Shown in pieces: positions 6,262-53,175 of a DNA stretch of 64,000 nt. The notes below the pieces were generated by a model. It saw nothing but the letters and a program-made list of their open reading frames with translations. It ran no database searches and was not told the DNA's origin. This DNA is from Diadema setosum. Taxonomy: Eukaryota. Position 1 is the first letter of the stretch. Each line of letters begins with the position of its first letter. Location of the stretch: the NCBI RefSeq assembly GCF_964275005.1, contig NC_092698.1, positions 24,289,037-24,353,036 of the forward strand, in the 5' to 3' direction. Position numbers and translations under genes: made by a program.

Positions 6262-7397
6262 ATGCGATAAGCACAATTATCATCTATATAGGACGTTTTA
6301 GCGGCGCATTAAAAACGCGTATTGTACTCCGCTCAATTTTTACCGTTCAATATCGGAGCATATTGAACGAAACGCATAGGCCAACGTGTTACTTCCCCAT
6401 AGGCTACCGTTGTTACTTGCCGTTCAAGATCATACCATATTCAATTCTGTCTCGTCTATTGCGCGAGCGCTTGCTGAATGCGCAAACGCTTGCTACTAGT
6501 GCGCGTCATTTTTGTTACAATTCACAAGCGCGCAAGCATCTTGCTAGTTGTTTGTTTCATGTACGCAGTTTTAGGGGCTTCCCCTTTTCAGCGCTGGGAT
6601 GTGACTGCCGAGTCAACTTCAAAGACGAGTAGAAGCCGGGTAATTTTGTGCAGTTTATGCTTGCTCTACTTCATTGTATAGATGATAATAATTATATTGG
6701 ATGGCCTTGATTCATGGAATACCAGGGAATATTGCACTCGTTAGGGCCAATATTGCACTCATCTTCGATTCGTGCAATATTGGCCCTAACTCGTGCAATA
6801 TTCCCTGTTATCCCATTCATAGCCATCCAATATAATATAATTATCATCTATATAAGACGTTTTAGCAGCGCATTAAAAACGCGTATTGTAGTCCGCTTAA
6901 TTTTTACCGTTCAATATCAGAGCATATTGAACAAAACGCATAGGCCAACGTATTAATTCCCCATAGGCTACCGTGGTTACTTGTCGTTCAAGATCACACC
7001 ATATTCAATTCTGTCTCATCTATCGCACTAGCGCTTGCTGAATGCGCAAACGCTTGCTACTAGTGCGCGTCATTTTGTTACAATTCACAAGCGCGCAGAC
7101 ATCTTGCTAGTTGTTTGTTTCATACGCAGTTTTAGGGGCTTCCCCTTTTCAGCGCTGGGATGTGACTGTCGAGTCAACTTCCAAGACGAGTAGAAGCCGG
7201 GTAATTTTGTGCAGTTTATGCTTGCTCTGCTTGATTGTATAGATGATAATAATTACAGGTGTATATTGGATGGCCTTGATTCATGGAATACCAGGGAATA
7301 TTGCACTCGTTAGGGTCAATATTGCACTCATCTTCAATTTGTGCAATATTGGTCCTAACTCGTGCAATATTCCCTGGTATCCCATTCATAGCCATCC
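6262..7397. repeat. Two tandem copies of a ~570-bp unit. Each ends in a ~180-bp hairpin; the cores are at 6699-6828 and 7268-7397.
   Basis: atcatctatata(g/a)gacgttttagc(g/a)gcgcattaaaaacgcgtattgta... recurs at 6278 and 6843 with more than 90% identity over about 570 bp. The hairpin ggatggccttgattcatggaataccagggaatattgcactcgttagggccaatattgcac / gtgcaatattggccctaactcgtgcaatattccctg..tatcccattcatagccatcc is flanked by inverted tatagatgataataattatattg, which looks MITE-like. Confidence 0.65.
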
Positions 7398-8852
7398 AAT
7401 ATAATATAAATATCTCGCAACAGATCGGCATAATGCTAGATTTTTAGCGTTTTTTTCGGTGGCCCCGATTCTCAACACGGGACTTGATTTGTGCGCACTT
7501 CAGAAGTGGATTTTTAGTTGGGATTTTTGGCGGTGACTGAGGCACTTTCCGGTTTTGAACAACAGTGCCAGTACAGTATGTCAGTGACGCTAGTAATAAT
7601 GAGTCAGTATGACGCGATGTGGTAAATTATGCGTGTGTTGGACAATAGAATTTGCTGGCTTGTAATTGTGCTGTGGCAAGTCGTAAGTGGTGATAGATGT
7701 CCGGATTTTGGAGGCCAGCCAAAAACTGGGGGTTTTACTCTAGTTGTCTGTGCACTGTAGAGTAGCGGGTTACTATTATTACTAGTAACACTGTTAGTGT
7801 TCACCAGTTCACTCACGAACTATATTCACTGGTTTGATTGTACCGTTGTACTAGAGCCTACGTATTTACTATTACTAAATAGAGTTCTATAGTATTTACA
7901 ATGAATGTCAAGAAAGCATCGATTTGATGACCTTTTCTGAAAGTCCACCCTCTACGCAACCTCCAGTTGAAACTCCACAGGAGATGTCTGGGAGGTCTAC
8001 TCATCCAAGATCCAGGATCCAAGACCTACCGTCGCGTCGGACCCCAACACAACATCAACATTTTTTAATACTACGAAAAGGTCACAAGCACACAGGACAT
8101 CCATCACTACACATGGGACCGTGGATAAGACGGTCGTTCCCGAGTAACTGGACACTCAATATTGTTTATCAATACAAGAAATGTTCCTTGAAAAATACGC
8201 TACACTGCCATGACCCCCAAACACTCTGAACTCATTTATGTTAATTAGTGAGTATATATTTATACAGAAGGTGCTACTTACGGCATATGTCTGAATTTCC
8301 TCCGTATTTTCATTCACACAATAACCTACGCAGCCAGCTTTAGGCTTTGCATTTAGTACATGCGCATGCGCTGTAGGCAGGTAGCTCAGCGGAAAAAAAA
8401 ACAAAACAACAAAAACAAATACAGTTCTGTACACGGGTGAGAAATAATTATGGTACAGTGTACTAGTACTAGTATTTTGCCGTGTATCCCTTCCAATATA
8501 CGTGTACCACTGACATGAGTACCTCAATGAATGTACTTGTAAATCCTCACACACTAAAAACACACTAAAAACAATAAAGGAAGTTGTCTCCCCCGCCCTC
8601 GCCCCTCTTTTTCTCCTGGGCCCCGTCTTATAAAGCCTTCAAATCAATCACAAGTCCCCAAATCAATCGCAACTCGCATTGCAGCAAACAAAAATCTTGT
8701 GATTGATTTCTATCACAAGCCTTTATAAGACAGGCCCCTGATCTCTCTCTCTCCCCTCTATCGATACAAAAGACAAGTCAACCTATTTCAACCTATTATA
8801 AAAAAAAAAAAAGTCTCCGCTGAGCACAAGATAAGAAATCACTCTCTTTGTC

Positions 8853-11556: not shown

Positions 11557-12282
11557 TTAAAGGGATGATGGTATAGTATTGGTGGAGATGAGGATTGGGC
11601 TTTTAACTTTTTGCTAGATACCAAGAAATCACTCTTAAAATAGTTCAGAGCATATATCATTCTAAGAGGAGTTCAACGTTTATTTGATGAAAATCAGTTT
11701 TGGAATGGCTGAGACATCTAAAAAAAAAAATAAATAAAACAAAGAGATCGTATATATAGTAATAAAAGGTGAGTCCCACTTTTTATTAGGTCTTGTACCT
11801 GGGTGTGTGTGTGTGTGTGTTGCGTGGTTGTGGTGTGTGTTTCCGTGCCTTTACATTGATTGTATAATTGTAAGTTTAATGTATTGAGTGGCCCACATTC
11901 ATACAAGCTTGTCTTTTACGTGGGTCCCTCGATCTTTTCCTTTAACGCAATTATTTTGAACAATTAATTTCATAATATATGCATTTTTTGTTGTAAGATG
12001 ATACATGTCCGTTTTGTTTTCATTGAATTTGTGCAACAACAAACATGACGTGTTATTGGAAATAAAATTTCATTTGAACTGAACTGAATTGAATTGAATT
12101 AAGATCGCTCTGTTTTTGGATACCTCAGCCATTTCCAAACCAATTTTATTCATCAAATAAATCGTGAATTCCTCTTGGAATCACACGCTCTTTTATATTT
12201 CATAAGAGGTTTGTCGTTATCTCACCAAAGAATGCTAGAAACCTGAAGTTAGATCTCAACCAAAACTATACGATCCCTTTAA
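11557..12282. mobile_element. Foldback MITE (copy 1 of the family). It is interrupted in its centre by a ~370-bp insertion carrying a (GT)n run and a LINE 3' tail.
   Basis: The left half (ttaaagggatgatggtatagtattggtggagatgaggattgggcttttaactttttgc..) and the right half (..cctcagccatttccaaaccaattttattcatcaaataa...ctcaaccaaaactatacgatccctttaa) match the other copies. The 14-bp TIR is ttaaagggat.gta. Confidence 0.6.
11735..12103 (+). mobile_element. 5'-truncated 3'-end fragment of the LINE family, inserted into the MITE centre. Its tail reads ggaaataaaatttcatttgaactgaactgaattgaattgaatt.
   Basis: The 3' end resembles the 3' UTR and tail of the LINE at 15100-15180 (gcagaaataaaaactgaactgaactgaactgaa). 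The same GAAATAAA-(TGAAY)n tail is seen at about 43520-43567, 38270-38310 and 59860-59960. Confidence 0.4.
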
Positions 12283-15695: not shown

Positions 15696-15970
15696 GTAAA
15701 GATTTTCTCTTTAAAAAAAAAAAAAAAAAAAAAAAAGGACTTCACTGGTGTTCGTTTGTTTGTTTGTTTTTCATTTCATCCAAATTTGTCAGTGCATATC
15801 CTGTAAAGGGCGCTCTTTCTGAATAAGTTTCCTTTACAATGATCACATAGTAACTGTCATTTCTGGGACAATTACGCTCACGTTCATTACTCACACAAAT
15901 CTTCTAATTGGCCAAATGCTGCAGTGAAGTGTCGCGGGTTCGCCATACCTCTCGATTCTCTGATATCACC

Positions 15971-16366
15971 TTTGAAGGGATACTATAGAATTTCAGTTGA
16001 GATGGGACTTAAGGTTTCTAACGTTTTTTGATGATGATTTTTCAAGATAAAGAGAACCCTCTTATGAAGTATGGAAAGAAATATGGTTATAAGAAAAATT
16101 CGAAGTTTATTTGAGGAAAATTAGTTTTGAAATAGATGAGATGTCCGAAACAAAGCAATCCTGATAATATCGTTGTATTTTACTTTGTTTTTTGATATCT
16201 CAGGTATTTCTAGACCATTATATTCATCAAACCAACTTTGCATTCCTCTTAGAACTCTATGCTCTTTAACATTTCATACAGTGTTTTCTAGGTATCTCGC
16301 AAAAAAAAAAAGAGTTAAAAGCTTAATCCTCACGTCAACCAATGGGTTACTCTACCACCCCTTTAA
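15971..16366. mobile_element. Foldback MITE, a diverged copy of the B-variant.
   Basis: The body shares gataaagagaaccctcttatgaagtatggaaag ... ctttaacatttcatacagtgttttctaggtatctcgcaaaaaaa with the copies at 49289 and 52791. Internal halves are reverse complements of each other. Confidence 0.5.
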
Positions 16367-23608: not shown

Positions 23609-24483
23609 GTGGGAGTCTCTCCCCTCATTTCTCTCTTCGTCCTTTGCCCATTTTACACCTGTCATTTAACCCAGAGCTTACCACAACTCGATGACGGGAA
23701 GGCATTTAAGCGGAGCTCCGTGAAATCAACACCTCTTCGTAAAGAATGTTTTATATTCGACACAGCATAACAATTTCATTCGTTATGATAATCTGCTGAA
23801 ATCAACTGTCTTGATTGTTGATTAGTGATAGCACATCGTTGAAATGATAGTTATCAAATCAGATTGTAGGAGATGTTCATGAAGAATGTTCTATGTCCAA
23901 TAAAGTCTAACAATACCATCCGTTATGAACATCTGCTGCTGAAATCTGTCGTCTGGAATATAAATCAGTGGTAGACTATTGCTGGAAATCAAGATAGTTA
24001 TCGACTCACATTACTGAGCCCTTCATAAATGGCACGATGGTTAATTTAGAAATGTCATGTAATTTATCTGTGCCTTGACCTACTTAATACAGTAAGAACA
24101 GAATAAACTGAATTGACTTCCCTTTTACTTTTTTTACTTTGAATACTCAAAATTGTCAAGATGTCACTCACAGTACAATCCATGACCGTCAGGGATTATC
24201 CTTTACTTAGCGCTTTACAACGACGCGATGTCTCGTTAAAGTTAAGCCCGCCACACACTATACAACTCACGACTATACGACTGACAGACTATGGATCCGA
24301 AATAAATCACAGTAGCCTCAGAATAAACACGCGTGTTTACAGATCCAAAGTCTGTCTAGTCGTGAGTCCGTATAGTGTGCGGCGGGCTTTAAGGTCATTA
24401 AAAAACCCCGAGCTGAATATGGTTCCATGACATTTGCTCCTGTGAGAATTACTCCCATGAAATTTCTACACGATTGGCTAATC

Positions 24484-24597
24484 AGGCTGCTAATCATAAA
24501 TTCTACCCACCAGCATTACCCTAACCCTAATCCTGATCCTCATATCAAACTAAACCTAAAACTTTATCACAACCCTATAACCCTAACCCTAAGTGCT
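24484..24597. repeat. Degenerate interstitial telomere-like repeat, (CCCTAA)n, the complement of the TTAGGG type.
   Basis: ccctaaccctaatcctgatcct...aaccctataaccctaaccctaag. Confidence 0.55.
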
Positions 24598-24706
24598 TGG
24601 CGAAAATAAAACCCAAGCAATTGTCGCAGGAGCAACTGTTGTGTCACCGCTGAAAAAAAACTTACAATCTGATGTCCACCAACATTTGTGATTGAATTCC
24701 TTGTAG

Positions 24707-24890
24707 CACTTGCATCCAGTACTGCAAGAATGGCTACTTCTCCAGAACTCGGATGATGTTCGTCAACAAAGTGGCGCTAGGATCCGTCAAAGACTGCTAT
24801 GAAGTGGACATGACATTGAAAGAAGCTCCGGAGGGATACAACAGCACGCATGGAGTGCGGGCGTCAGTGGATAGACCTTCAGAATTCACA
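24707..24890 (+). CDS. PARP4: PARP catalytic exon encoding (S)TCIQYCKNGYFSRTRMMFVNKVALGSVKDCYEVDMTLKEAPEGYNSTHGVRASVDRPSEFT.
   Basis: Matches PARP4 SIKYSHPGETDGTRLLLICDVALGKCMDLHEKDFSLTEAPPGYDSVHGV. Acceptor cttgtag|c, donor aca|gtaaaa. Confidence 0.8.
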
Positions 24891-25397
24891 GTAAAATAAT
24901 TTTGGAATGATTTCTCACGGTCTAGTGCTATTTATCGGAAAGTCATAATGTGTTGACGAACACGAATTGATCGAAATGCATGCACACATACACATATAAT
25001 TTATATAGATATGCACACATGTAGGGCCTACATGAGTACATACTGTGTATTCTAACGAATGCATTCTGTACATGCACAGTAGTGTATCATTTATTTGAAT
25101 ATCAGATTCTATCCTACGATAGCGAATGATACATTGATATATCCATACTTAAAGGTACTATTTACTATTGGGAGCAGTGATTTTAAAAATGTTCGAATTA
25201 TCACATTTGATGCTTATGTGTAGGTCAGTTGTATCAAAACAGTCCACCATTTGTAAGAAAATTTCTCGGTAAAGTCGAAAATATAAGGAGATGCCACTAT
25301 TTTACTCAATAAACCATAAAATAATGTAGACGGTTTATTTTAGAAAGAACAATTATTATAACTATTGTTGACATTTTGTATAGCTAACAAAACTATA

Positions 25398-26859
25398 GGG
25401 TTTCCCGGTCAATTTCATACTTTTGTCATTCAAGTTCCTATTCCGAGCATTCGATTTCACACATTCTACGCTCGCAGCACTGAATCAGCAATCAAATTCA
25501 AAATCCGGTCATTCGAATTCACTATCCGAGCATTCAAATTCACTATCGGAGCATTCAAATTCACTATCGGAACATTCAAATTCACTATCGGAGCATTCAA
25601 ATTTAAGAGAGGAGCACGCATTTCATCAATGAGCATTCAAATTCATGTCAAGCTGGCGACGGAATCTCGTCGGTCATTCAAATTCGTGAATAGGCAACCA
25701 TGTTCCAAATAACTGCATTCAGTTTAAAAAGAAGTACTGAATTTAGTTAGTTTGGGGCCGTGTATGCATTTCTTTCTCATTTGGCTTTGAATATATTGGG
25801 ATTTATGATGATTATTTATTTTGCAGTAGAGGTCCACCTGTTTATTGACAATTTTGAACTCGCGCTTAGCAAATAGGAATATACAGGCACATGTCCCTCG
25901 GATTGGACATAAAATGGAGGTCCCACATGTAAGAGAGTCACAACTCATGCACGTAAAAGATCCCACTTCATTTATTCATCGCAAAGAGCAGAACATCTAA
26001 CTGGACCCCATATGGAAGACCAGCTTTTGCAGCTGAATATGGGTTATCCAGCCATCTTCTTTGATAGAAAATGAAACAAACAAACAAAAATTAGGCACTG
26101 ATGTATAGGCCTACAGACGAGCATAATACGGAGGGTTGGTTGACACTTTCGAGGAAAAAACCACAATTTCGACTATATTGACACTGATACATGAACATTT
26201 TATACGTGCTGTTTGTTGTGTATTGCTGTCTTATTGGTTTACTTTTGCGGGACTATGTGAGATCATTGTGTGTCAGTTTGTCTTAATTGTCATTATGTGG
26301 TTGGTGTTGGGGCGTTGTCAGCATGTAGTATCGTCAAGGAATATGATTACTAGTCGTTGTGTTGTTTTTATGCACTGCTGATTGGACATTGCAATTTGAA
26401 ATTTATTAAGATGAAAAACAAAGAATACATGAACAGAGAACAATGTAGAACATGTAAAATATCCTAATTACACTATATGCAAACATTCATTGGTTGTGTT
26501 GGCCCTTTTTCCTTTCTTAAAATTCTCCTCCATTTTCCTCGTTAAATTGATTGCACGAAGTAGGAACTTGATCGCCTAAAAATGAATTTGAACGCTCCAA
26601 ACAAGCTCATTGGGACTATCACGTGACTATCGCATGAATTTGAATGCACGAGTAGGAAAGTCGGTGCTCGCATTTTGAAATTGAGTGCCCAATCGTGAAT
26701 TTGATATCACGAAAACGAAATAGAACGCTCATAAATGAAATTGATCGCTCGGATTCTGAATTTGAATGCCCGAATATTTTCGCGTGCGTGCGCTGCGTGA
26801 ATTTGAATGCACATTAATGAATTTGAGTGACATAAGTATGAAATTGACCGGGAAAACCT
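25398..26859 (+). mobile_element. Non-autonomous TIR DNA transposon, copy A (~1.46 kb). It has ~35-bp TIRs (GGGTTTCCCGGTCAATTTCATACTTTTGTCA), arrays of subterminal GCATTCAAATTC-type repeats at both ends, and an embedded SINE-like module. It sits in an intron of the PARP4-like gene.
   Basis: The 5' end gggtttcccggtcaatttcatacttttgtcattcaa is the reverse complement of the 3' end ttgagtgacataagtatgaaattgaccgggaaaacc. It is flanked by TATA on both sides. Tandem cattcaaattcactatcggagc repeats lie at 25500-25620, and the inverted repeat gaatttgaatgc lies at 26630-26830. Confidence 0.7.
25905..26090 (+). mobile_element. SINE-like retroposon module (conserved 3' part ending in a (CAAA)n tail), embedded in TIR element copy A.
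   Basis: Shares ggacataaaat.gagg.ccca..tgt.agag.agtcacaactcatgc...ttcattcatcgcaaa with the standalone copy at 43700-43807. The same module occurs inverted in copy B (about 30700-30950), and there is a partial copy at 45405-45545. Confidence 0.5.
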
Positions 26860-27186
26860 ATATTATACTAATTAACATTTTTTACATTGGGTGTTTCTAT
26901 CCCTAACTGACATTTTAAAACTATTTTTAAGCACTGAAGCTAGGTTTTTGTTTCAGCTGCAAATGGTAAATACCCTGGCAATACCTTTTAATCAATCCCA
27001 TTGATATCATCAGGGGCAGATATTACGTAACCCAAATTTTACAGCAGGCTTACCAAAGGAGCATAGCTGCATATAATTATGACGTCCATTACCTACACTG
27101 TCTTGAAGCCGTCTCTTCTGTATATTTGCAAGTGCACCGCAAACAGGAAAAGTTTTCTTTTACCGAAACTTTTTCGTCCCTTGCAG

Positions 27187-27334
27187 GAGGACGAGTACGT
27201 TGTGTATTCCGCCGGGCAGCAGTGCATACGATATCTCGTCGAGTTCAGCATCGACGGGGACGATGACATGGTGGACGGTTTCGACTTCCGAGAGGAAAGC
27301 GACGTGGAAGATGAAGAACCGTACGAGAAGATCG
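27187..27334 (+). CDS. PARP4: Exon at the end of the PARP catalytic domain: EDEYVVYSAGQQCIRYLVEFSIDGDDDMVDGFDFREESDVEDEEPYEKI(G).
   Basis: Matches PARP4 DDEFVVYKTNQVKMKYIIKFSMPGDQ. Acceptor ccttgcag|g, donor atcg|gtatgc. Anchored by the ORF-track frame 27079. Confidence 0.8.
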
Positions 27335-27392
27335 GTATGCTGCACTAATAGTCTTTCAGATGTTGCTGAGATTAGATATGAATAAACCGATG

Positions 27393-27441
27393 ATGATGAT
27401 GATGATGATGACGACAATGATGATGAGGGTGCTGGTGGTTG

Positions 27442-27487
<46 letters not shown>

Positions 27488-27591
27488 AATGGGAAGGAGG
27501 AGGAGGTAGAGGAGGAGGAGGAGGAGAAAAGGAGAAATAAGAAGAGGAGCAGAAGAAGGGAAGAGGAAAATAAAGAGATATATAGGTAGGT

Positions 27592-27656
<65 letters not shown>
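27393..27656. repeat. Compound microsatellite: (GAT)n, then (GGA)n and purine-rich sequence, then (GATA)n.
   Basis: gatgatgat..., ggaggaggag..., gatagatagata...; another (GAA/GGA)n tract lies at 28340-28460. Confidence 0.9.
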
Positions 27657-28190
27657 TAATGGTCTGTATTCAAATCATGCGTGGCAACGAGAGGTTGAAT
27701 TGTGCATTAGTTTACATGAGTTTACATGAGTTCACATAAAAGATACACACTCTCGCACGCGTACATACACTTGCTCGCACACGTTGTCCTCTCATATCAT
27801 CTTACTATATTGCACGTGGGTAAAACTAAAACCTACACTTCATACACAGCGATGAAAACAAGGTCTGAAGAAGAAAAGTTTGGAAATAACAAGACGCAAA
27901 AGCAGCGGGTAAGGAGGAAATAATGATGAAACTGAGAAGAAGATGGAGATGAGGGTATCATGGAGAGACGCAGGTTATATGGCGTAAAATTTCGCGGAAA
28001 TGGGGGATTGAGAATGTAATAATATAAACCCACTGGCTATCAACACGAAATACACATCAAAATGCATTCCTAATTAGTATTATTTTGTCCCTGATGGGAG
28101 GGCTCAGAGAGAGAATGAGAGGAAAGATCCGAGGAGGAAAAAGTAGGAGGTGGACAACTAAAGCATTCAATATCTTTCATCACTTTCCAG

Positions 28191-28324
28191 ATCTCCTGGA
28201 CGTACAAGGCTGCAGGGATCCCGTCAGTCAAATAGACGCCGGACTCGTAGCGGACAATGGACGGGAGTGCGTCGACCTGCGAGAAGTTCACATTCGTGGA
28301 CACATAACTGATCTTGCGGCCAAG
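28191..28324 (+). CDS. PARP4: Linker exon encoding (D)LLDVQGCRDPVSQIDAGLVADNGRECVDLREVHIRGHITDLAAK.
   Basis: Matches PARP4 GNLVPLEDVHIKGRIIDTVAQV. Acceptor ctttccag|at, donor caag|gtatac. Confidence 0.75.
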
Positions 28325-28644
28325 GTATACCCAGGATGATAAGATAGAAGAAGGAAAGAAAAATGAAGGAGAATAAAAAAAAATACGAAAGGAGGATAAG
28401 GAGAAGAAGAAGAAAAAGAATGAGGAGGAGAAGGAGGAGGAAGAAGAAGAGGAGAGAAAAAAATAACCCTATGCTAATTATCTGTTTATAAGAAAGGCAC
28501 GTGCGTCTAGTCAGCATTACCAATAATGTATTGTATCGATTTGACAAGTGGCAGCAATACGAGAGTAGTTCATGTGCGTTCAGTGTGTAGGCTTAGAGAT
28601 ATTGTCATTTCCCCCTTGTCCGGCTACAGATAACAGTCTTACAG

Positions 28645-28854
28645 GTGTACCAGAGCACAAAGTCCGACGGTGACGTTTCGGAAGCCCGTTATGTGTTCCC
28701 GCTCGACGACCGGGCGGCCGTCTGCGGCTTCGAAGCCTACATCAACGGGAAACACGTGATTGGTCAGGTGAAGACCAAAGAAAGGGCAAAAGAGGAATTT
28801 CAGGCTGCAGTCCGAGCTGGTCATGGGGCTTACTTGATGCAAGAGGAAGCGTCG
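28645..28854 (+). CDS. PARP4: VIT-domain exon encoding VYQSTKSDGDVSEARYVFPLDDRAAVCGFEAYINGKHVIGQVKTKERAKEEFQAAVRAGHGAYLMQEEAS.
   Basis: Near-colinear with the PARP4 VIT domain KYIFPLDDKAAVCGFEAFINGKHIVGEIKEKEEAQQEYLEAVTQGHGAYLMSQDAP. Acceptor ttacag|gtg, donor tcg|gttagt. 70 codons. Confidence 0.85.
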
Positions 28855-29375
28855 GTTAGTATAATTGTTGATAATATTGTGGATGGATTTTCAAATATTT
28901 CAGAATGTTGGCCTGTTTGGCGCTCCATGGTACGAGTATGCTATTTGCAAAATGACGCCACTGTTTATGACGACATTTTCCAAATCGTGCACTATTCGTG
29001 AAAGGATATCTCAAAGTAACTGTGACATCACAAAGCAATTCTGACATTGCGCGCTGCATCTTAAAGTGACCCAAAGCAATTTATTGTCGTACATTTGAAT
29101 AGTATAATGCAATTACATTCTTGCGTTTATGATATATTATGACTCCTGTCTTTTAGTTTTTTGTCTATTTCCCTCTCTATATATACATTTACAGAGGGAA
29201 AGACAGGGGAAGGGAGAGAGAGAGAAAGTGCAAATTATCAGAATCATCTCTCCATCATGTTCATAGAAGTTGCTATGTATATACTCTAGTGGCGTTCTTC
29301 TGTCCAGGGGTTATATTGAACACACAATAAGATGAATAGCAGATTTAAGCTCTTCTTCGATCGCTGTATGGACAG

Positions 29376-29564
29376 AACGTCTTCTCCGTGAGCATCGGCA
29401 ACCTGCCCTCCCTCGCCACCGTGGTCATCCAGATCACGTATGTCACCGAGCTCGGGGCGGAGGACGATCACGCGGTCTTCTCCCTGCTCGGCAGCGTGGC
29501 CCCGTGGATACGAAAGGAGATCCAAGGCAGTCAGTTGACCGCTGACCAGCAGGCGGTCTCCGGA
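29376..29564 (+). CDS. PARP4: VIT-domain exon encoding NVFSVSIGNLPSLATVVIQITYVTELGAEDDHAVFSLLGSVAPWIRKEIQGSQLTADQQAVSG.
   Basis: Matches PARP4 DVFTVSVGNLPPKAKVLIKITYITELSILGTVGVFFMPATVAPW. Acceptor ggacag|aac, donor gga|gtgagt. 63 codons. Confidence 0.8.
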
Positions 29565-29922
29565 GTGAGTGGGCGGGAGAATGAGAGGTGAATGCACTTT
29601 ACGTTATTCCTCAGACATTCTTGGCAAGTTCCAGCTCTGAACATAACCAATAGCAACCACACGTCTATCAGGGACCAGCTGAAGAACAGCCATTTGCTGA
29701 AGCAGGTTCCGTGCTAAAATAAGATAAAATAAGCTGAACTGTCTTCTTGATCTATTCGCTCATCGCAGTATTTACATAACCATGAGCAATTCATAATTTT
29801 GATCTCACTTGTATGCCGTAATTAATGCGTGGTGTCTTATCAATACTAGTTTCTATATGATTCCAGAAGTGACAGCCTGTTGTTTCACGAGTGGTCAGCA
29901 TGAGATTTGTAATAATAATATA

Positions 29923-31390
29923 GGTTTTCCCGGTCAATTTCATACTTTTGTCACTCAAATTCATTAATGTGCATTCAAATTCACGCAGCGCACGCACGCG
30001 AAAATATTCGGGCATTCAAATTCAGAATCAAAGCGATCAATTTCGTTTATGAGCGTTCTATTTCGTTTTCGTGATATCAAATTCACGATTGGGCATTCAA
30101 TTTCAAAATGCGAGCACCGACTTTCCTACTCGTGCATTCAAATTCATGCGATAGTCACGTGATAGTTCCCATGAGCTTGTCTGGAGCGTTCAAATTCATT
30201 TTTAGGCGATCAAGTTCCTACTTCGTGCAATCAATTTAACGAGGAAAATGGAGGAGACTTTCAAGAAATGAAAAAGGGCCAACACAACCAATGAATGTTT
30301 GCATATAGTGTAATTAGGATTGTTCACATGTTCTACATTGTTCTCTGTTCATGTATTCTTTGTTTTTCATCTCAATAAATTTCAAATTGCAATGTCCAAT
30401 CAGCAGTGCATCCAAACAACACAACGACTAGTAATCATATTGCTTGATGATACTGCATGCTGACAACGCCCTAACACCAACCACATAATGACAATTCATC
30501 AATTTAAGACAAACTGACACACAATGATCTCACATAGTGCCGCAAAAGTAAATCAATAAGACAGCAATACACAACAAACAACAAGTATAAAATGTTCATG
30601 TATCAGTTTCAATATAGTCGACATTGTGTTTTTTTCCCTCGAAAGTGTCAACCAACCCTCCGTATTATGCTCGTCTGTAGGCCTATACAGTGCCTAATCT
30701 TTGCTTGTTTGTTTCATTTTCTATCAAAGAAGATGGCTGGATAACCCATATTCAGCTGCAAAAGCTCGTCTTCCATATGGGGTCCAGTTAGATGTTTTGC
30801 TCTTTGCGATGAATAAATGAAGTGGGATCTTTCACGTGCATGAGTTGTGACTCTCTTACACGTGGGACCTCCATTTTATGTCCAATCCGAGGGACATGTG
30901 CCTGTATATTCCTATTTGCTAAGCGCTAGTTTAAAATTGTCAATTAACAGATGCATGGACCTCTACTGAAAAATAAATAATCATCATAAATCCCATATTC
31001 AAAGCCCAATGAGAAACACATGCATACACGGCCCCAAACTAACTAAATTCAGGACTTCTTTTAAATTGAATGCAGTTATTTGGAACATGGTTGCCTATTC
31101 ACGAATTTGAATGACCGACGAGATTCCGTCGCCAGCTTGACATGAATTTGAATGCTCATTAATGAAATGCGTGCTCCTCTCTTAAATTTGAATGCTCCGA
31201 TAGTGAATTTGAATGTTCCGATAGTGAATTTGAATGCTCCGATAGTGAATTTGAATGCTCCGAGAGTGAACTCGAATGACCGGATTTTGAATTTGATTGC
31301 TGATTCAGTGCTGCGAGCGTGGAATGCGTGAAATCGAATGCTCGGAATAGGAACTTGAATGACAAAAGTATGAAATTGACCGGGAAAACC
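29923..31390 (-). mobile_element. TIR DNA transposon copy B, an inverted and ~98% identical duplicate of copy A, in the next-but-one PARP4-like intron. It is followed by an (AAT)n microsatellite at 31393-31478.
   Basis: The reverse complement of 29923-31390 aligns end-to-end with 25398-26859, including the TIRs, the subterminal repeats and the SINE-like insert. Confidence 0.7.
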
Positions 31391-31477
<87 letters not shown>

Positions 31478-31992
31478 TTGAATAATATGAATAATAACAA
31501 TGATAATTATAACATTAACAATTATTATCATCATCATTATCATTAGTAGTAGTAGTAGTATTTGTAGTAATATCATCATAGCCATCGTAATCATTTTAGA
31601 ATGATGATGATTATCATTGTTGTTATCATTGTCATTGGAATTACTGTCAAAAATGATTTGTATGTTAAACATTGTTTCTATGATATTACAGTAAAAGTGA
31701 TGCGTTAAAATCAAAATCTGTATGTTGGAGTTATACATAATGATGAAACACGAACTACAGAAGACCAAATATTATCTAATAAAATCCTATTCGTACTTGC
31801 GCCCTCAGTCAACACGTTATGCCAATGTCCCTCTCGACCCAGTTGTAAAAATGGACATCTGGCAAAGCCGAGGCATTGAATAGCAAGTCGCTTAAAGAGA
31901 GGAGATGTAACACTAAAGATACTGCTCCATGTAAACGAGACTCCTCTAACATGTTTTAATTATTTTCATGACGAAACTCCAAACACAGGAAG

Positions 31993-32070
31993 GAATCTCT
32001 ACAACTCAGCATCAAGATGGCGTCGGATATTCAACGCCTGGAGTCGCCAACACATCAAATCAAGGCTAAG
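31993..32070 (+). CDS. PARP4: Exon encoding ESLQLSIKMASDIQRLESPTHQIKAK. The acceptor is uncertain by a few nt (alternative cag| at 31988).
   Basis: Matches PARP4 KQSFSLTMSIEMPYVIEFIFSDTHELKQK. Donor gctaag|gtatcc. The start at 31993 is the only choice that keeps phase 0 after the 29564 exon. Confidence 0.5.
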
Positions 32071-33299
32071 GTATCCCAAATCGAAATCAAGACGTGACTC
32101 TGAACAAAGTACATGTAGTTCTTTCCTTTCTTTTCAAAACCGAGTTGCATGGTTACTATACATAGCAATCAATACGTATGCCCCCCCCCCCACACACACA
32201 CACATACGCACGCAAATAAACAGACCCAATAACAGAAAAATAACGAAACAAGTTTCTGGATTATGGGTTATTACGTTGGAATGCGTGGCAAAGGGCTGAC
32301 TCGCCCGACACATCGTCAATGGAATCAGTAATCAAAACATGTTCAGCCCTAGAAGCGACGTGTTCGCACCTTCAATTCAGCTTCAAACTATGGCTTTAAT
32401 GATGATTGTTTACTCTTTGATGACGTCACTATGGCCTTAATGATGATTGTTTACTCTTTGATGACGTCACTATGGCTTTAATGATGATTTTTTTTACTCC
32501 TGGTGATATTGACGACGTCTCTCGTCACCAAGATTGCTTGATGTTATCGTTAGCAACGTTAGATTAAAGGCATAATTTACCATTTGTAGATGAAACAAAA
32601 ACAAAGCATTAGTGCTTCAAAATAGTTCTAAAATGTGAGTTAGGGATAGAAACATCCAATGTGAAAACTTGAACCAGTATAATCGATGCTAAGTATTGTT
32701 AAATATACAAAATGTGAGCAATAGTTATAACAAAAATGTTTCCAGACTAAACCGTCTACAGTTATGGTTTAATGAGAAAAATAGTGATATCTCCTTATAC
32801 TTTAGGCTTTATTGCAAAAATTGTATATGGCAGGACGTTTTGTGATACAACTGACCTACACGTATGCATCCAAAGTGATATCTCGAACATTTTTAAATCA
32901 CTGCTCCAAAGGTAAACAGGACCGTTAATACAAATGACTCTGGACCGAGAAACAGGTAAACTTTAGACTATTCACGGGGCCTATCAATAATATCGGTTGA
33001 TCCATGAGGGTTGGGATGGCGAGGCACGGAAAACTGAAGCTCATCCCATCTCGATAAATTTGGGTGCATTTAGCAGTTGTTGTTGTTGTTGCTGCTGCTA
33101 CTGCTGCTGTTATTATTATTGTTTCAATAGATGTGACTAAGAAATCTATTTCAGGAACGATCTTTCGGTTGTAGTGATAATTATTTGCAACGGTGTGCAG
33201 TTCTAATTTAAATGTTAGAAGAGGTATTTTATGCAAGAGGGCTGTGGTATTCTAACTGCTCATCTATCTTTTTTCTTTTTTTTTCTTTTTTTTTTACAG

Positions 33300-33434
33300 A
33301 TTGGAGGGAGCAAAGCAACTGTCACTCTACAGGACTCCGTTAAGTTAGGTGATGGTTTTCAATTGCTTGTGGGCGTTACTGATCCGCATCGGCCCCGCAT
33401 GTGGCAAGAATACGACCCGAAACGAGATTCTTAC
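33300..33434 (+). CDS. PARP4: Exon encoding IGGSKATVTLQDSVKLGDGFQLLVGVTDPHRPRMWQEYDPKRDSY.
   Basis: Matches PARP4 ...SSGFSLHIGLSAAYLPRMWVEKHPEKES. Acceptor (t)n acag|att, donor tac|gtaagt. Confidence 0.75.
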
Positions 33435-34376: not shown

Positions 34377-34772
34377 GTTAAAGGATATGGTACAGTATTG
34401 GTGGATATGAGAATTGGGCTTTTAACTTTTTGCGAAATACCAAGAAAACTCTAATGATAATAGTACAGAGCATACCATTTTAGGAGGAATTCAAAGTTTA
34501 TTTGGTGAAAATCAGGTTTGAAATTATTGAAACATCCAAAAACAAAGTAAAACAAAGCGATCATAATAAAGTGTGGGTCCCACAATTTATTAGAATCGCT
34601 CTTTTTTGATATCTCAGCCATTTCAAAACCAATTTTCATCAAATGAATATTGAATTCCTCATAGAAGTACATGCTCTTTCATATTCTATAAGAGGTTTCT
34701 CATTATCTCACCAAAAAAAAATGTTAGAAACCTGAAATTAGGTCTCAACCAAAACTATACGATCCCTTTAAA
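34377..34772. mobile_element. Foldback MITE (A-variant), complete, about 400 bp. The whole body is a near-perfect palindrome.
   Basis: TIRs ttaaagg(g/a)at.gtacag / ctatacgatccctttaa. The left half (gaaaatcaggtttgaaat..) is the reverse complement of the right half (atttcaaaaccaattttcatc). More than 90% identical to the copy at 39490-39885. Confidence 0.7.
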
Positions 34773-34982
34773 GCATGATATTAGTTGCCAAAATCAAGTA
34801 TTCTGTCAGCTGTAACTTGAAAGTGTTAAATGATGACAGTGGCATTTTCAGTAGATTCAACATAGCACTATGTGTTGGTACAGGTTTTCATTGATTCATA
34901 GGTGGTAAACTTATATTCCTCTGCCTTGTTGATTCATATATAATGTATTCATCTTGTATTCCCACGTCTCCTACTGTGAAAG

Positions 34983-39489: not shown

Positions 39490-39885
39490 TTAAAGGGATG
39501 GTACAGTATTGGTGGAGATGAGAATTGGGCTTTTAACTTTTTGCGAGATACCAAGAACACACTTATGATATAGTCCAGAGCATACCATTTTAAGAGGAAT
39601 TCAAAGTTTATTTGATGAAAATCGGGTTTGGAATGACTGAAACATCCAAAAACAAAGTAAAACAAACGATCGTAATAAAGTGTGGGTCCCACACTTCATT
39701 AGAATCGCTCTTTTTTGGATATCTCAGTCATTTCAAAACCAATTTTCATCAAATAAACATTGAATTCCTCATATAATTACATGCTCTTTCATATTTCATA
39801 AGGGGTTTCTCATTATCTCACCAAAAAAAAAAAAATGTCAGAAACCTGAACTTAGGTCTCAACCAAAACTATACGATCCCTTTAA
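39490..39885. mobile_element. Foldback MITE (A-variant), complete.
   Basis: Same TIRs and palindromic body as the copy at 34377. Confidence 0.7.
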
Positions 39886-43569: not shown

Positions 43570-43807
43570 GTCAGTGTATATCTCAGTCGGTAGGGCGTCT
43601 CCAGATCCAAAGGACACATGTTTAATACCCGGGTCTAATTGAGCAATGTTTTGTGTAATCATACCGCCCCCTCCAATAAAAGGCAAAACACTTTGTCCCT
43701 CCAATGGGACATAAAATAGAGGCCCCATGTGTGAGATAGTCACAACTCATGCGCATAGATTCCGCTTGATTCATTCATCGCAAAAACAAATAAACAAACA
43801 AACAAAA
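43570..43807 (+). mobile_element. tRNA-derived SINE-like element with A-box and B-box-like motifs. It carries the shared 3' module and a (CAAA)n tail.
   Basis: The head tatatctcagtcggtagggcgtctccag...atgtttaatacccgggtc resembles tRNA box A (TRGCTCAGTGGTAGAGC) and box B (GGTTCGANTCC). The 3' part matches the modules inside the TIR transposon copies. The tail reads aaacaaataaacaaacaaacaaaa. Confidence 0.5.
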
Positions 43808-43966
43808 CCCAGGGTAGGCCTACAGTAAGTGGCCCGCCTCACATCAATTCTATTCAAATGAGAATTTATTTTCAATAGCATATTTTTTGTTGATACAAGT
43901 TTAAGGGGGAAAATACAATGTATGCAACAATAGATGTAGATATACATGTACATGTGAAAATAATGT

Positions 43967-45430
43967 TCAAAATCTTTTTCTTCTCGAGTCACTACACAAG
44001 TCCTGTCCAGTGCAGAGCGCAGGATCTGGCTTTGGTGTTGAAAGTCTCCAGATCATTGACAGTGCATGGCTCTGGTAGGAGGGGGCAGACCAAAAGATGT
44101 TGCATTGTCTGATCCTGCCCGCAGTTGCAAGCAGTTTCTCCATCCCTATTGTAGCCCCATTTCTGCATGAGGACTTTGCATCGTCCTGTTCCTGCCATAG
44201 GCGATTCAGACATGACCAGGTGGGCCATGCCTCACTTGAACCCGGAGGGAGGGATTCACTTGGTCCATAGGAGAGCTTATGCGTCACAGACTGGAGGTGG
44301 TTGGACCATAGGGTAATCCTTCGACCGTGGGCGGTGCCATCAAGGGATTCGGTTGAATGGAGAAAACTGCGTCTGGATTTGAGTCTCTTTTTAGCAGGTT
44401 CACGATTGTAGAATGGGTGGCGAGGGTTAACTTCTTGCTTGGTTTTCTCCATCTGTGCTGGGACCTCTCGCCTGATGTGTGGTGGGGCAATACCACACAG
44501 TAAGTAAAGGTCATCTACTCTTGTTGGTCGCAGACATCCAGAGATAGCTCTGCAAGCTGCATTCAGGACTGGGTCGATCTTTGCAGCATGGGATGACCTA
44601 CACCAGACAGGGGCTGCATACTCGGCAGTGGAGAAGCATAGAGCAAGAGCTGTGGTGCGGATGGTTTTGGCATCTGTTCCCCATCTTGTATTAGCAAGCT
44701 TCTTCAATATGCTGTTCCTTGCTCCAGCTTTTGCCTTTGTCTTGGCAATGTGCTCCTTGTCAGTAAGGGAACGATCCAGTGTGACACCTAGATAGATCGG
44801 CTTATTGGTGTGTTTAAGCCATTTTCCATACCATCTGACCCTAAACAAGTTGTCGGTTAGCATCTCTGTTCTTAAGGTGGAAGACGCTAAGTTGAGTCTT
44901 CTCAGGATTTGCACGTAGGTGATTTGCGGCATAGTAAGGAGTTAGACCTGCCAGAGCATCACTGAGTGCTTTTTCCACCTCTTCAAAGGATTGCTTCTGT
45001 GAGGCAATGCAGAGATCATCAGCATACAGGTAGCTCCTTGTACTTGGATGGATTGGTTGGTCATTCGTGTAGACGTTGAAAAGAAGCGGGGCAAGGACGC
45101 TTCCTTGCGGGAGACCGTTTTTCTGTCTCCGCCATTTGCTGCGGGTACCATTCAGATTCACGTAGAACCGCCGGTTTGAAAGCAGGTTCTGGATCAACTG
45201 TGTCAGCTTGACATCCTTGGTCATCTCAAAGACTTTCCTTGTAAGAATCCTATAGTTCACTGTATCGTAGGCCGCAGAGAGGTCAACAAAAGCTGCTCCA
45301 GTTATCAGCCCTTCCTCAAACCCATCTTCGATGTACTGTGTGAGATTCAACAGTTGGCCAGTACAGGATTTTCCTGGCCTGAAGCCTGCCTGCTCGGGAA
45401 TGAGGAGCTCATCTACAAAGGGGGCGATTC
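43967..45430 (-). mobile_element. 5'-truncated, frameshifted non-LTR retrotransposon (LINE). It carries reverse transcriptase plus the C-terminal CCHC region and is a pseudogene.
   Basis: ORF 44841-45350(-) contains RT motifs GLPQGSVLAPLLFNVYTNDQP and YADDLCIAS. ORF 43967-44932(-) continues with ...RVRWYGKWLKHTNKPIYLGVTLDRSLT.... The C-terminal motif CNCGQDQTMQHLLVCPLLPEPC lies in a different frame (43992-44228), so the frame has shifted. Confidence 0.75.
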
Positions 45431-46188
45431 ATTCATCGCAAAATGTTCAAAATAATTGGGTTATTGGAAAACATCCAATTGGATCTCACGGTAGACCAGC
45501 TAGTGCAGCTGAACATTGGCTATTCAGCCATCTTCTCAGATGAAAAATGAAACCCCCAATTTAAACAATCAATGGCAATTGCAGCTTTTAACATAGTCAT
45601 TTGCCAAATCAATCTGTTGAATTAAATCAATCCAAGTAAAAAAAAAAAAAAAAATGTGCACTAATGAAATATGTCTATACATGTCTTGGCATATTGTTTT
45701 TCGAGTACATGATCCGCTTCTTTCAAGCTCCGCTTTTCAGAATAGATCACTCTTTTTTTCCCATCGCCGTATTTACTTTTGTCATCATTGCAAAGTATGC
45801 ATAATTTCTCTCATTATCTATCACATTCATTCGTACATGTACTTTGTATTGTACTTCTTACAAATCATTGTACGATATAATTTGCAAAATGTATACATTG
45901 TATTATTCCTTATCTTTAGATGGATGAGCATTAGGTAAATTATCAACCTGAAGTTAAATCATGTTTCAAATTAAATTTGATAAAATCAAATTAATGCAAT
46001 TAAATTAAATCCAAAGTTTTAGAAGCAACGTTTATCAATTCATATGTAGGCAGGTTTACAAGAGTAATGAATAAGCCCCTTGGGTGGATAATTCATAGTT
46101 GTTGTTGTTGTTGTTTTTCTATTATGATTTGTGTTTGATGGTATTACATCTCATGGACACGCATGAAAACTAGACGATGATGATTCTG

Positions 46189-47742: not shown

Positions 47743-48491
47743 GTATCCTCATTACAGACGAGGCCACGCAAGTGCCAGTGACACCTATGATACCACGGCC
47801 CAAACCAACGCCCAAACCACTTCCCACACCACTTACTGAGTTGGATGACGAGATTGCTCGCCTTCGATCCATGGCGATTGACATGTCGATAGATATGGAT
47901 TTAGATTATTTGAAAACCAATAGTCTAAAGATGGACACACGTAAACGGGCAGTGAGAAAACGGGGATTCGCACTGGGGTTGCCGACATTTTCTTTCTGGA
48001 AATCAGAAAAGAAAGAGAAAGAGAAGCCGAAGCCAATGAAGAAGCAACGTGAAATTCCCGAAAGTTTTCGAGATATGACTGTTGCCAGTGAATTGAGCGA
48101 ACGAGGGGATAGGCTTCACGATCTGCAGGAGAAATCCGACGACCTTGCTGCCAGCGCCGCGCAATTCAGCTCCTCTACCAGGAGAATCAAATCTGGGCTA
48201 AATTGGCGGAGTTGGCTTCCTTCATTTGGCTCAGGAGAGGCGGCGCCACCACCACTAGTACCATCGCGTGGATACGGGCCCCCTTCCCCCGGATATGCAG
48301 AGCCAAAGCGATTACCAGGGGCTGTGCCACCAGCGCCACCACCAGCAGGTGGATTGCCACCGCCACAGCCGGAGCAACTCATGAAGAGATCGGCCAAGCA
48401 ACCGCCACCACCCCCTTCCCCCGAATTTGTAGAGTCAACATATTTTATAGCGCAGGGGGGTGATGACATCCCCGCCGCGATGATATCGCCG

Positions 48492-48522
<31 letters not shown>

Positions 48523-49028
48523 CTCTATTAACTTCTTCTACACAGAGACAACTACCACATTCGTTGATAGCAGAACGAGATGACGAAGGCCGCAGAGAAA
48601 AATTACCCCGTGATAGATTAGGTGATGTACCGTGTGCAGGGGGTCTTCCAACACTAGGCATAAGATATATGTCAAACAGATATATGTCAGACTATGAGGA
48701 GAGTGAGGATGAGGAGGAGGAGTACTGGGAACCCATTGAGGAGTATGAGAAGCCTACGCGAGAACCAGCTGAGAGTGGATTGCCCTCACGAGAAGCTCTT
48801 GGCGCTCCAAGGAAGTTAGCAACAGGAGACATGATGTTTGCTGCTTTGGATGATGGGGTATCCACCGCCGATGATTTATATCGTCTGGAAGACTTCTGCT
48901 TTATAGGACAGGGAGAACTCAAGAGGAAGCCAGAGCGAGAGGTGTCCGCGCTCCGGTTTCCCTTTACTGTCCGCCGAAAGCAGCTGAGCGCTGAGGACGT
49001 CAACAGGATTTTACACCGGCAGAGCAGT
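47743..49028 (+). CDS. Large coding exon of about 428 codons. An R-SNARE (synaptobrevin-like) coiled-coil motif at the N-terminal end is followed by proline-rich and acidic low-complexity regions. The acceptor may instead be at 47758.
   Basis: The continuous frame is ...IPRPKPTPKPLPTPLTELDDEIARLRSM...FRDMTVASELSERGDRLHDLQEKSDDLAASAAQFSSSTRRIKSGLNWRS...PPPPPPPPPPPP...YEESEDEEEEYWEPIEEYEK...RILHRQSS. The SNARE motif aligns with VAMP2 [44 protein letters not shown]. Donor agt|gtaaga at 49029. The ORF-track entry 47772-49046 uses a GTG as pseudo-start; the frame is open upstream to the acceptors. Confidence 0.6.
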
Positions 49029-49058
49029 GTAAGAACCTTTGGATGATATACGAGGGGA

Positions 49059-49288: not shown

Positions 49289-49680
49289 TTAAAGGGACTG
49301 TACAGTACTGGTTGAGGTGGGGATTCAGGTTTATAACATTCCTGAGTGAGATAATGAGAAACCTCTTATGAAATATGAAAGAGCATGTAATTTTAAGAAG
49401 GATTCAACATTTATTTCATGAAAATTGGTTTTCAAATGGCTGCGATATCCAAAAAAGTGATAATAATAAAAGGCGACAGGCCACGCCTTTTATTAGGATC
49501 TCTTTGTTTCACCTTGTTTTTGGATATCTCAGCCATTTCAAAACCGATTTTCATCAAATAAACTTTTGATACCCCTTAGAATTGCATGCTCTTTGACATC
49601 TCATAGAGTGGTTTCTGAAAATCTCGCAAAACGTTAAAAGCTAAATCCTCACCTCGACCAGAACTGTACAGTCCCTTTAA
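49289..49680. mobile_element. Foldback MITE (B-variant), complete. The GGGGCGGATCC element 49775-49935 lies immediately downstream.
   Basis: TIRs ttaaagggactgtacag / ctgtacagtccctttaa. The palindromic body contains gagataatgagaaacctcttatgaaatatgaaagagcatg. Confidence 0.65.
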
Positions 49681-51562: not shown

Positions 51563-52790
51563 ATTTCTACCGTCACCTAAAAAAAAATATATATATATAT
51601 ATCTCTTGTACGGCGAAATTCACTGTGTTACGTCACGTATACTAGTGTGTTTCTGTGTTTGACGTCACCCAAACTTTGTGCACGCAGCAGCTGTCGCAAC
51701 ATGCAACACCATAACAACATCTCTATCATTTCGAAAAAACAAAACAAAACTGCGGACTACTTCCTGTCAGAGTGCGCCAGGCTTGGACCTATAGGGAAAT
51801 CTCCCAACGACTTGACCAACCCAGGCCGTGACACCGTGGGATGGTTACGGCAGTTTCGTGACGCGGTGTATAGCAGCTTTATAGCAGTGTATTAATCTTA
51901 GAAAAAAATATTAAATGTCTTCATACAGAATAAGGAGAAGATTTTGAAGAAAAAAAAATATGACAAATTTTGACCATGAGTCAATTGGGTCCTAAATGTG
52001 GACACTGCCCAAATTCGACTGTCCCTTCACGATACGTTTTACTGCCAATATGCCTTTCATAATAGTAAAGCCTAAAAAACCTTTTCCAATAATGGACTGG
52101 TTTAGACGATTACAAATTAGTACATACCAATTCAATCTTAAACCCCATTGGAGTATAAGAAAATTGCACAAAATCATTTCTTCATTTCTCACTTTTGTTT
52201 AGTCGTATATGATGACCAGTTGAGGGTAACTTTATAAGGATCATCGCCAGTTTAATAATTAGTAATGCCGTCAGTTTGAGAGTATTCTTGAGAGTTTACA
52301 CAATAGGTTCGCTTTTTAATCTGTTGTGATGTTATGATTCATGTATTGATCATAATAAGATGAAGATTTCGTTTCCTCGTCGTCATAACGGCTTTGACTT
52401 AGAACCGTTTGACACCATTAGCCGATTGGAATCATACCCCCTCAAACCAAAGTGATGTGGAATGGGCAGAACATCCCACGATAGTCAGATCCTTGCATCA
52501 TTTTACGCCTGTGAAATTTTCTTCAGCCATAGACTGAAACCTAACAAATTATCTGTTACAATTCATCAGGCATGTTTATAGAGGGAATTTAGAAGTAATT
52601 CTCCAATCAACCAATTGAATATTTTAAATACTTGTCGATCACCGGATGAATATCAAGTGAAAACTTTAGTGTATTGGATTAGTCGATTGCGATCCATTAT
52701 TCTTTTGTAATTAAGAGTCAGCTCTGATTTGCTGTTCTGTATATCTTATCTTTGCATTTGTCTTATGATGGTTTGAACCTCTTTGTATGC

Positions 52791-53175
52791 TTTAAGGAAT
52801 CGTGTAATTTTAGTTGAGACCTAATTTCAGGTTTCTAGCATTTTTGTTTTCGATGAGATAATGAGAACCCTCTTATGAAATGTGAAATATTTCAAAGATC
52901 ATTTCATCAAAGATTTACTTGAAGAAACTTACTTTTGAAATGGCCGAGATATCAAAACCAGAGCGTTCCTGATATAAGGTGGGACCCACCTTTTATTGCG
53001 ATCGCTTTGTTTTACACTTTTTTTTTTTAGATGTCTAAGCCATTCCGAAAACCGATTTTCATCGATTATACTTTGAATCCCTCTTAGAATGGTATGCTCT
53101 GTACTTTTTCATAAGTGGTTTCTTGGTATCTCGCAAAAAGTGAAAAGTTCAATCCTCATCTCCACCATTACTACT
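52791..53175. mobile_element. Foldback MITE (B-variant), a 3'-degraded copy.
   Basis: ctttaaggaatcgtgtaattttagttgagacctaatttcaggtttctagca...gatgagataatgagaaccctcttatgaaatgtgaaat... shares the body of the 49289 copy. Confidence 0.55.

Follow-up and report, generated by a model that had tools for sequence, protein, structure and literature searches.

A pair of inverted, moderately diverged copies of a non-autonomous DNA transposon in introns flanking four exons of a PARP4-like gene of Diadema setosum

In a stretch of 64,000 nucleotides (nt) of the Diadema setosum genome (contig NC_092698.1, positions 24,289,037 to 24,353,036; hereafter the window, in whose coordinates all positions are given), two copies of a transposable element, A and B, lie in opposite orientation in two introns of a PARP4-like gene, with the four coding exons E1–E4 between them. 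The inverted pair is genuine and well delimited, and it represents two moderately diverged insertions. The reading that we adopt, and hold to be very probably correct, is that one family of non-autonomous terminal inverted repeat (TIR) transposons was inserted twice and separately, in opposite orientation, into the introns that flank E1–E4. The likeliest consequence of this arrangement would be a pairing of the two introns that favours back-splicing or exon skipping, as suggested by the structure prediction described below.

The inverted pair and its insertion sites

A repeat search over positions 24000–33000 returned a chain of inverted matches that joins 25394–26866 to 29915–31394, and both the global alignment and BLAST run end to end, so that each copy is throughout the reverse complement of the other, as had been proposed in a first-pass annotation of this DNA. 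The global alignment, short flanks included, contains 1418 matches, 55 mismatches and 24 gap columns, giving 96.3% identity over the aligned bases. For the element alone the identity is 96.5% (51 mismatches in 1452 aligned positions; Kimura two-parameter distance 0.036; 7 indels of 22 nt in all), and it amounts to 95.1–95.2% when the gaps are counted (BLAST). The value of about 98% given in the first-pass annotation is reached in the first ~336 nt only (repeat search). In blocks of 150 nt the identity varies between 94% and 99% and is trendless along the element, while the mismatches comprise 25 transitions and 26 transversions, with just 5 of the transitions in a CpG context. With a divergence of 3.5–3.7% spread evenly along the element, the recent transposition that had been suggested as one reading of the high identity is overstated. 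With GG..CC taken as the ends, the boundaries coincide with those first assigned to copy B, but copy A ends one base short of its proposed end at 26859.

The similarity of the two copies stops at their termini plus the tetranucleotide TATA, which had been noticed beside both copies and is indeed found on all four sides; beyond it the flanks are unrelated. Copy A interrupts an older dispersed repeat of which two uninterrupted relatives are present in the window, and copy A is therefore an insertion into a pre-existing repeat. Copy B sits inside an (ATT)n microsatellite. Since the homology goes no further than the termini and the surroundings are unrelated in sequence (older repeat in one case, (ATT)n in the other), the two copies result from two separate transposition events. 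A third copy of the element was not found within the window.

Anatomy of the element

The TIRs are 40 nt long in each copy, with 36 of 40 positions matching in A and 38 of 40 in B (counted by eye). The repeat search delimits them as 44 nt at 91% in A, TATA included, and as 58 nt at 88% in B, where the arm takes in TATA and continues into the microsatellite next to it. The presence of TIRs in both copies had thus been recognised correctly, but not their length, which had been put at 35 bp with a quoted string of 31 nt. The element termini carry GGKTTTCCCGGTCAATTTCATAC, and the 19-mer CCCGGTCAATTTCATACTT is common to all four of them.

Inside the TIRs the copies carry arrays of the 12-mer GCATTCAAATTC, which, at up to two mismatches, is matched 41 times in the window (13 matches being expected by chance); 32 of the 41 matches fall inside copies A and B. 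There are 10 on one strand in the first ~290 nt of each copy and 6 on the opposite strand in the last ~250 nt, and five of the 5′ motifs lie within a 21-bp tandem array of 5.6 units (25487–25603 in A, 31185–31301 in B). The claim of subterminal repeat arrays thus holds well, with the motif concentrated in the copies and its polarity opposite at the two ends. Transposase-binding sites classically form subterminal arrays of opposite orientation, and the 12-mers may be presumed to be such sites.

None of the ORFs (open reading frames) of the element, all of 115 amino acids or fewer, gave a Pfam match above the cut-off, Rfam and ARAGORN scans of the element returned nothing above threshold, and no autonomous partner with the same termini was found within the window. 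As part of the reading of two insertions, we interpret the element as a non-autonomous class II (cut-and-paste) TIR transposon without coding capacity. Its copies would have been mobilised in trans by an unseen autonomous partner and are probably selectively neutral passengers.

The embedded SINE (short interspersed element)-like module of the first-pass annotation is present in both copies as a ~190-nt piece of a dispersed repeat, but the tRNA-like head of the other copy of that repeat, recognised by eye only, found no support from ARAGORN or Rfam. In copy A an (AAAC)n-like tail follows the module at ~26075–26100, and a relative that is 79–81% identical (BLAST) occurs elsewhere in the window at 43694–43784 and 45470–45553; dispersed copies and a simple-repeat tail, both of them features of a SINE, were therefore seen for the module. 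The fuller SINE-like copy extends 5′ at ~43570–43640, where A-box-like and B-box-like strings (TCAGTCGGTAGGGCG and GTTTAATACCCGG) can be picked out by eye only, and neither ARAGORN nor Rfam called a tRNA in this head. The module inside the element consists of body and tail, the head being absent. The label "SINE-like" is reasonable but not proven.

The same SINE-like copy (43570–43784 and 45470–45560, plus strand) belongs to a group of nested repeats at 43570–45560, in which it is split by a 5′-truncated retrotransposon without long terminal repeats (a long interspersed element, LINE) on the minus strand. The LINE has reverse transcriptase ORFs at 44841–45350 and 43967–44932 (minus strand) and a (TTTG)n-type tail at ~43785–43808, and the closest named relative of its reverse transcriptase is a protein of Branchiostoma belcheri (67% amino-acid identity). 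A Tara metagenome scaffold of 1.1 kb (ERZ28654620, TARA_SAMEA6030248_METAG-scaffold_155111, positions 1–1094) is 96% identical at the DNA level to the LINE at 43971–45068. A 103-kb ENA contig has a match to the LINE at 75% but carries no other repeat of the window, and therefore belongs to another species.

Target-site duplication and superfamily

The empty site was rebuilt under eleven combinations of element boundary and length of the target-site duplication (TSD), with the TSD rules of the superfamilies taken from the literature (PMC4122938). Five models fit both copies: a TA duplication with the termini GG..CC, a TA duplication with TAGG..CCTA, an AT duplication with AGG..CCT, a TATA duplication with GG..CC, and no duplication at all with TATAGG..CCTATA as the termini. 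An uninterrupted (ATT)n at the site of copy B is restored only by the TA duplication with TAGG..CCTA. This favours a TA duplication only weakly, since the microsatellite may have expanded later than the insertion.

At the site of copy A, the empty-site paralogues of the host repeat read AACAATAC-TTAGCATCGA-TTATAC or AACAATAC-TTACCATCGA-TTTTAC, and the locus itself reads AACAAAAC-TATA[element]TATA-TTATAC. The empty site is too diverged to fix the length of the TSD, while the nesting of copy A is proven.

Other superfamilies were tried and rejected. No register accommodates the 3-bp (TWA) duplication of PIF/Harbinger at either copy (ATA versus TAT). The 8-bp duplication of hAT fails at A in every register and agrees with B in a single register that falls within the microsatellite. 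For piggyBac/Kolobok the flanks would have to be TTAA, which is absent, the flanks being TATA.

Coordinates of the element copies, their parts, the surrounding repeats and the exons of the PARP4-like gene
Feature	Position in window	Strand	Description
Copy A	25398–26858	+	1461 nt, ends GG..CC; intron E0–E1
Copy B	29923–31390	-	1468 nt; intron E4–E5
5′ TIR, copy A	25398–25437	+	GGGTTTCCCGGTCAATTTCATACTTTTGTCATTCAAGTTC
3′ TIR, copy A	26819–26858	+	
5′ TIR, copy B	31351–31390	-	
3′ TIR, copy B	29923–29962	-	
5′ subterminal array, A	25426–25685	+	10 copies of the 12-mer, including 21-bp tandem array
3′ subterminal array, A	26584–26830	-	6 copies of the 12-mer
5′ subterminal array, B	31062–31362	-	10 copies of the 12-mer, including 21-bp tandem array
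3′ subterminal array, B	29951–30197	+	6 copies of the 12-mer
TATA flanks	25394–25397, 26859–26862, 29919–29922, 31391–31394	.	candidate TA, AT or TATA TSD, or part of the terminus
Internal module, A	25892–26077	+	~190 nt, 79–81% identical to SINE-like dispersed repeat
Internal module, B	30711–30896	-	counterpart of module in A
Older dispersed repeat around A	25149–25394 (left part), 26862–26971 (right part)	+	~350 bp, interrupted by A
Uninterrupted paralogue of older repeat	32575–32928	-	78–85% identical; in intron of B, inverted relative to repeat around A
Further uninterrupted copy of older repeat	55773–56147	+	
Exon E0	24707–24890	+	part of PARP catalytic domain
Exon E1	27187–27334	+	148 nt; last ~21 residues of PARP catalytic domain and acidic linker
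Exon E2	28191–28324	+	134 nt; VIT domain start
Exon E3	28630–28854	+	225 nt; VIT domain
Exon E4	29376–29564	+	189 nt; VIT domain end
Exon E5	33300–33434	+	
Copies of MITE-like family	11557–11789, 12098–12282, 15960–16366, 34378–34784, 39490–39885, 49289–49680, 52787–53172		

The PARP4-like gene

The exon model of the gene was obtained by tblastn with PARP4-like proteins and by inspection of the splice sites. It is consistent in frame and has AG and GT at every junction, and it bears out the earlier statement that inverted copies in different introns bracket four coding exons. Exons E1–E4 add up to 696 nt, or 232 codons, with E1 beginning and E4 ending in phase 0. In the Pfam search of the spliced translation, E0–E1 hold the last part of the PARP catalytic domain (model positions 97–198 of 199) and E2–E4 a complete VIT domain (1–111 of 111). 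The outer bounds 27187 and 29564 given for four VIT-domain exons thus proved exact and the whole VIT domain is indeed enclosed, but E1 codes for the last part of the PARP catalytic domain. Pfam recognises PARP, VIT and vWA domains in the gene, and the nearest database proteins share this architecture at an identity of only 35–41%.

Other features were observed in and around the same gene. The intron between E1 and E2 contains a microsatellite run at 27389–27656, composed of (GAT)34, (AGG)10 and (AGAT)20 and starting 55 nt past the E1 donor, and the intron that houses copy B contains a 41-bp tandem repeat at 32387–32493 (2.6 copies, 95% matches). A sub-threshold Rfam match to SNORD96 at 31550–31637 on the minus strand (26.8 bits against a gathering threshold of 43, E = 0.13), lying antisense in an AT-rich intron, is probably due to chance. 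Farther downstream, an ORF of 424 amino acids at 47772–49046 (plus strand), proline-rich with acidic stretches, could represent a large 3′ exon, either of the PARP4-like gene or of a gene next to it; its exact look-up in public assemblies gave no match.

Predicted pairing of the introns and its consequences

The predicted duplex of A and B, of intermolecular type, comprises 1412 pairs at −2500 kcal/mol. In the controls, each arm folded on itself yielded about −445 kcal/mol, and shuffled partners yielded about −455 kcal/mol. The pre-mRNA stem-loop suggested by the first-pass annotation is, on this comparison with the shuffled partners, physically plausible. Copy A lies 328 nt upstream of the AG acceptor of E1 and copy B 358 nt downstream of the GT donor of E4, which is the geometry of inverted repeats that promote circular RNAs. 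Neither the repeat search nor BLAST detected a competing inverted partner of comparable strength within either intron, the only within-intron competitors being the 40-nt TIRs of each copy itself. The older repeat around A and its inverted paralogue at 32575–32928 form a second, weaker (78–85%) inverted pair around E1–E4.

In the primary transcript, an intronic duplex of ~1.4 kb would loop out E1–E4 and would put the E4 donor (29564) beside the E1 acceptor (27187). Such a geometry would favour back-splicing into a circular RNA of 696 nt, in-frame skipping of E1–E4 with the loss of the C-terminal strand of the PARP domain and of the whole VIT domain, or both, and the long double-stranded RNA made of the two copies would be a substrate for ADAR-type editing. 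The predicted back-splice junction, ending in GGTCTCCGGA and continuing with GAGGACGAGT, joins position 29564 to 27187; the predicted junction of E0 with E5 upon skipping would end in GAATTCACA and continue with ATTGGAGGG. As 696 is a multiple of three, and as the coding frame is free of stops and in phase 0 at both ends, the putative circle would have an endless ORF across the back-splice.

The requirements for such an effect have been described in other animals. The laccase2 circular RNA of Drosophila requires base-pairing of inverted intronic transposons, and complementary Alus are found in the introns flanking most human circular RNAs (PMC4617980). In reporter constructs, 30–40 nt of complementarity are enough for circularisation (PMC4201285).

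A bolder version of this scenario would regard the inverted pair, taken as young, as a splicing switch of this vault-PARP gene that is specific to the lineage and yields both the 696-nt circle and an in-frame linear isoform. If this were true, the linear isoform would be devoid of the end of the catalytic domain and of the whole VIT domain. We consider such a switch quite improbable.

Weighing the alternatives

Several points speak against our interpretation of the locus and its consequences. Circularisation, skipping and editing are here predictions only, and complementary repeats flank many exons that are not circularised (PMC4617980). The element family, with its TSD, copy number and partner, is known here from two copies only. 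Finally, the paralogous empty site is not clean, with TTAGCATCGA or TTACCATCGA where the locus of A has TATA only.

The alternative that survives best is that the copies are inert intronic passengers: splicing may be too fast, or the coating of the transcript by proteins too dense, for the copies ever to pair productively, and no circle, skipping or editing of any consequence would arise. We give this alternative considerable weight, though somewhat less than an even chance. Besides the failure of many repeat-flanked exons to circularise, it draws on the divergence of 3.5%, with transitions and transversions at about 1:1 and no sign of constraint, and on the introns of the same gene being full of other repeats (at least seven copies of a MITE-like family described below, a LINE fragment, SINE-like copies), so that the inverted pair is not exceptional. 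It has to contend, however, with a stretch of 1.4 kb at 96% complementarity, placed ~330–360 nt from the splice sites and far above the 30–40 nt that sufficed in reporter constructs (PMC4201285; see also PMC4617980), as well as with the lack of a competing partner within either intron.

At the level of DNA, the pair could act as an instability element that inverts or deletes the VIT exons through a cruciform or recombination. Homologous recombination could act on an inverted repeat of 1.46 kb and 96% identity to produce an inversion, and in single-stranded DNA inverted repeats can anneal over distances of up to 30 kb (PMC10164571). In double-stranded DNA, however, the spacer matters: with inverted Alus in yeast, the recombination induced by the inverted repeat dropped ~300-fold when the spacer grew from 12 to 100 bp, and gross rearrangements were ~31-fold lower at a spacer of 1.5 kb (PMC10164571). 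The spacer between copies A and B is 3064 nt, and the extrusion of a cruciform across such a distance, which had been put forward in the first-pass annotation, is unlikely; a rare inversion, or a fold-back after resection, is possible. The four enclosed exons are intact, keep the reading frame and point in the direction of the rest of the gene, so that no inversion has taken place on this haplotype. We therefore regard a role of the pair as an instability element as quite improbable.

A local inverted (segmental) duplication, in which a replication or repair error would have made one copy from the other, had been offered as an alternative to transposition. The copies are only 3 kb apart and no other long repeat pair of the window is as similar, as such a duplication would have it, but their similarity starts and stops exactly at the TIR termini plus TATA, and the flanks on the two sides, the older repeat around A and the (ATT)n around B, are unrelated. 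With the uninterrupted paralogues of its host repeat marking A as an insertion, we reject this origin as very improbable.

Least probable of all, to the point of being nearly negligible, is a composite "macrotransposon" in which the outer ends at 25398 and 31390, both of them 5′ ends of the element, would be used jointly and make a 6-kb block with the four exons mobile, for although these outer termini form a near-perfect inverted pair with full arrays of presumed binding sites, and alternative transposition via the ends of two nearby elements occurs with Ac/Ds and P elements, the window holds no second copy of the exon block, the copies have separate TATA flanks at unrelated insertion sites, and the 3.5% divergence suggests that the family may no longer be active.

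Thus the reading of two separate insertions of one non-autonomous TIR family is the one we retain.

Searches for relatives and other repeats of the window

The 19-mer common to the four termini was scanned for exact matches in large collections. It gave 3 matches in the JGI metagenomes, none of which could be extended by blastn and which we attribute to chance, none in IMG/VR, and 3 in the GTDB genomes, all in bacterial metagenome-assembled genomes and taken as chance by their titles alone. A protein-index search with the concatenated translations of the spurious ORFs of the element returned no match, two ORFs of the window were not on record in an exact look-up in public assemblies, and the TIR string did not occur in the papers of the collection searched. 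The family of the element may be one not yet catalogued.

Apart from the elements described above, the window holds a palindromic family of ~390 bp that resembles MITEs (transposable elements of the miniature inverted-repeat type), with at least seven copies, several of them in introns of the PARP4-like gene; between those at 34378 and 39490 the identity is 91%. A tandem duplication of ~570 bp (93% identical) occupies 6275–7414, and long palindromic segments at 2490–3217 and 58815–59443 are 85% and 71% self-complementary, respectively.

Significance and comparison with known systems

Nearby inverted copies of transposons in introns are common in animal genomes, and the effect that is plausible here follows an established mechanism. 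To specialists the locus will be unsurprising, as one more example of an arrangement that was known before to favour circular RNAs and the skipping of exons. What it offers is a clean prediction, namely an in-frame circle of 696 nt from a PARP4-like gene. For annotation, it is of value to mask both copies together with the nested SINE/LINE and the older repeat that A interrupts, and to use the exon model E0–E5.

In their possible 2-bp duplication of TA or AT, which fits both copies, the insertions would resemble those of Tc1/mariner elements, which duplicate TA, and of ISL2EU, whose duplication is of 2 bp and typically AT, while that of PIF/Harbinger is of 3 bp (PMC4122938). A 4-bp duplication of TATA, or a terminus that includes TATA, agrees with the present copies equally well; being compatible with TA (in two registers), AT and TATA alike, the two copies do not single out one superfamily.

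Like the non-autonomous TIR transposons with subterminal arrays, that is, internally deleted class II and MITE-like elements, the element combines TIRs and a short identical flanking duplication with opposed subterminal repeats, the absence of coding capacity and insertion into AT-rich targets and other repeats. It differs from the MITE-like elements in the captured SINE-like fragment and in its size, since its 1461 and 1468 nt exceed the length of <800 bp by which a MITE is usually defined (PMC5199201).

The closest parallels for the arrangement as a whole are the DNAREP1_DM pair of the Drosophila laccase2 gene and the inverted Alus of human genes. In all of these, opposed copies of one family occupy the introns that flank internal exons, lie near the splice sites and can pair across the exons. 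The pair described here is known from genomic sequence alone, and it encloses four exons where that of laccase2 encloses one. The arms of the laccase2 pair measure 106–272 nt at 69–75% identity, whereas those of the present pair extend over 1.46 kb at 96%.

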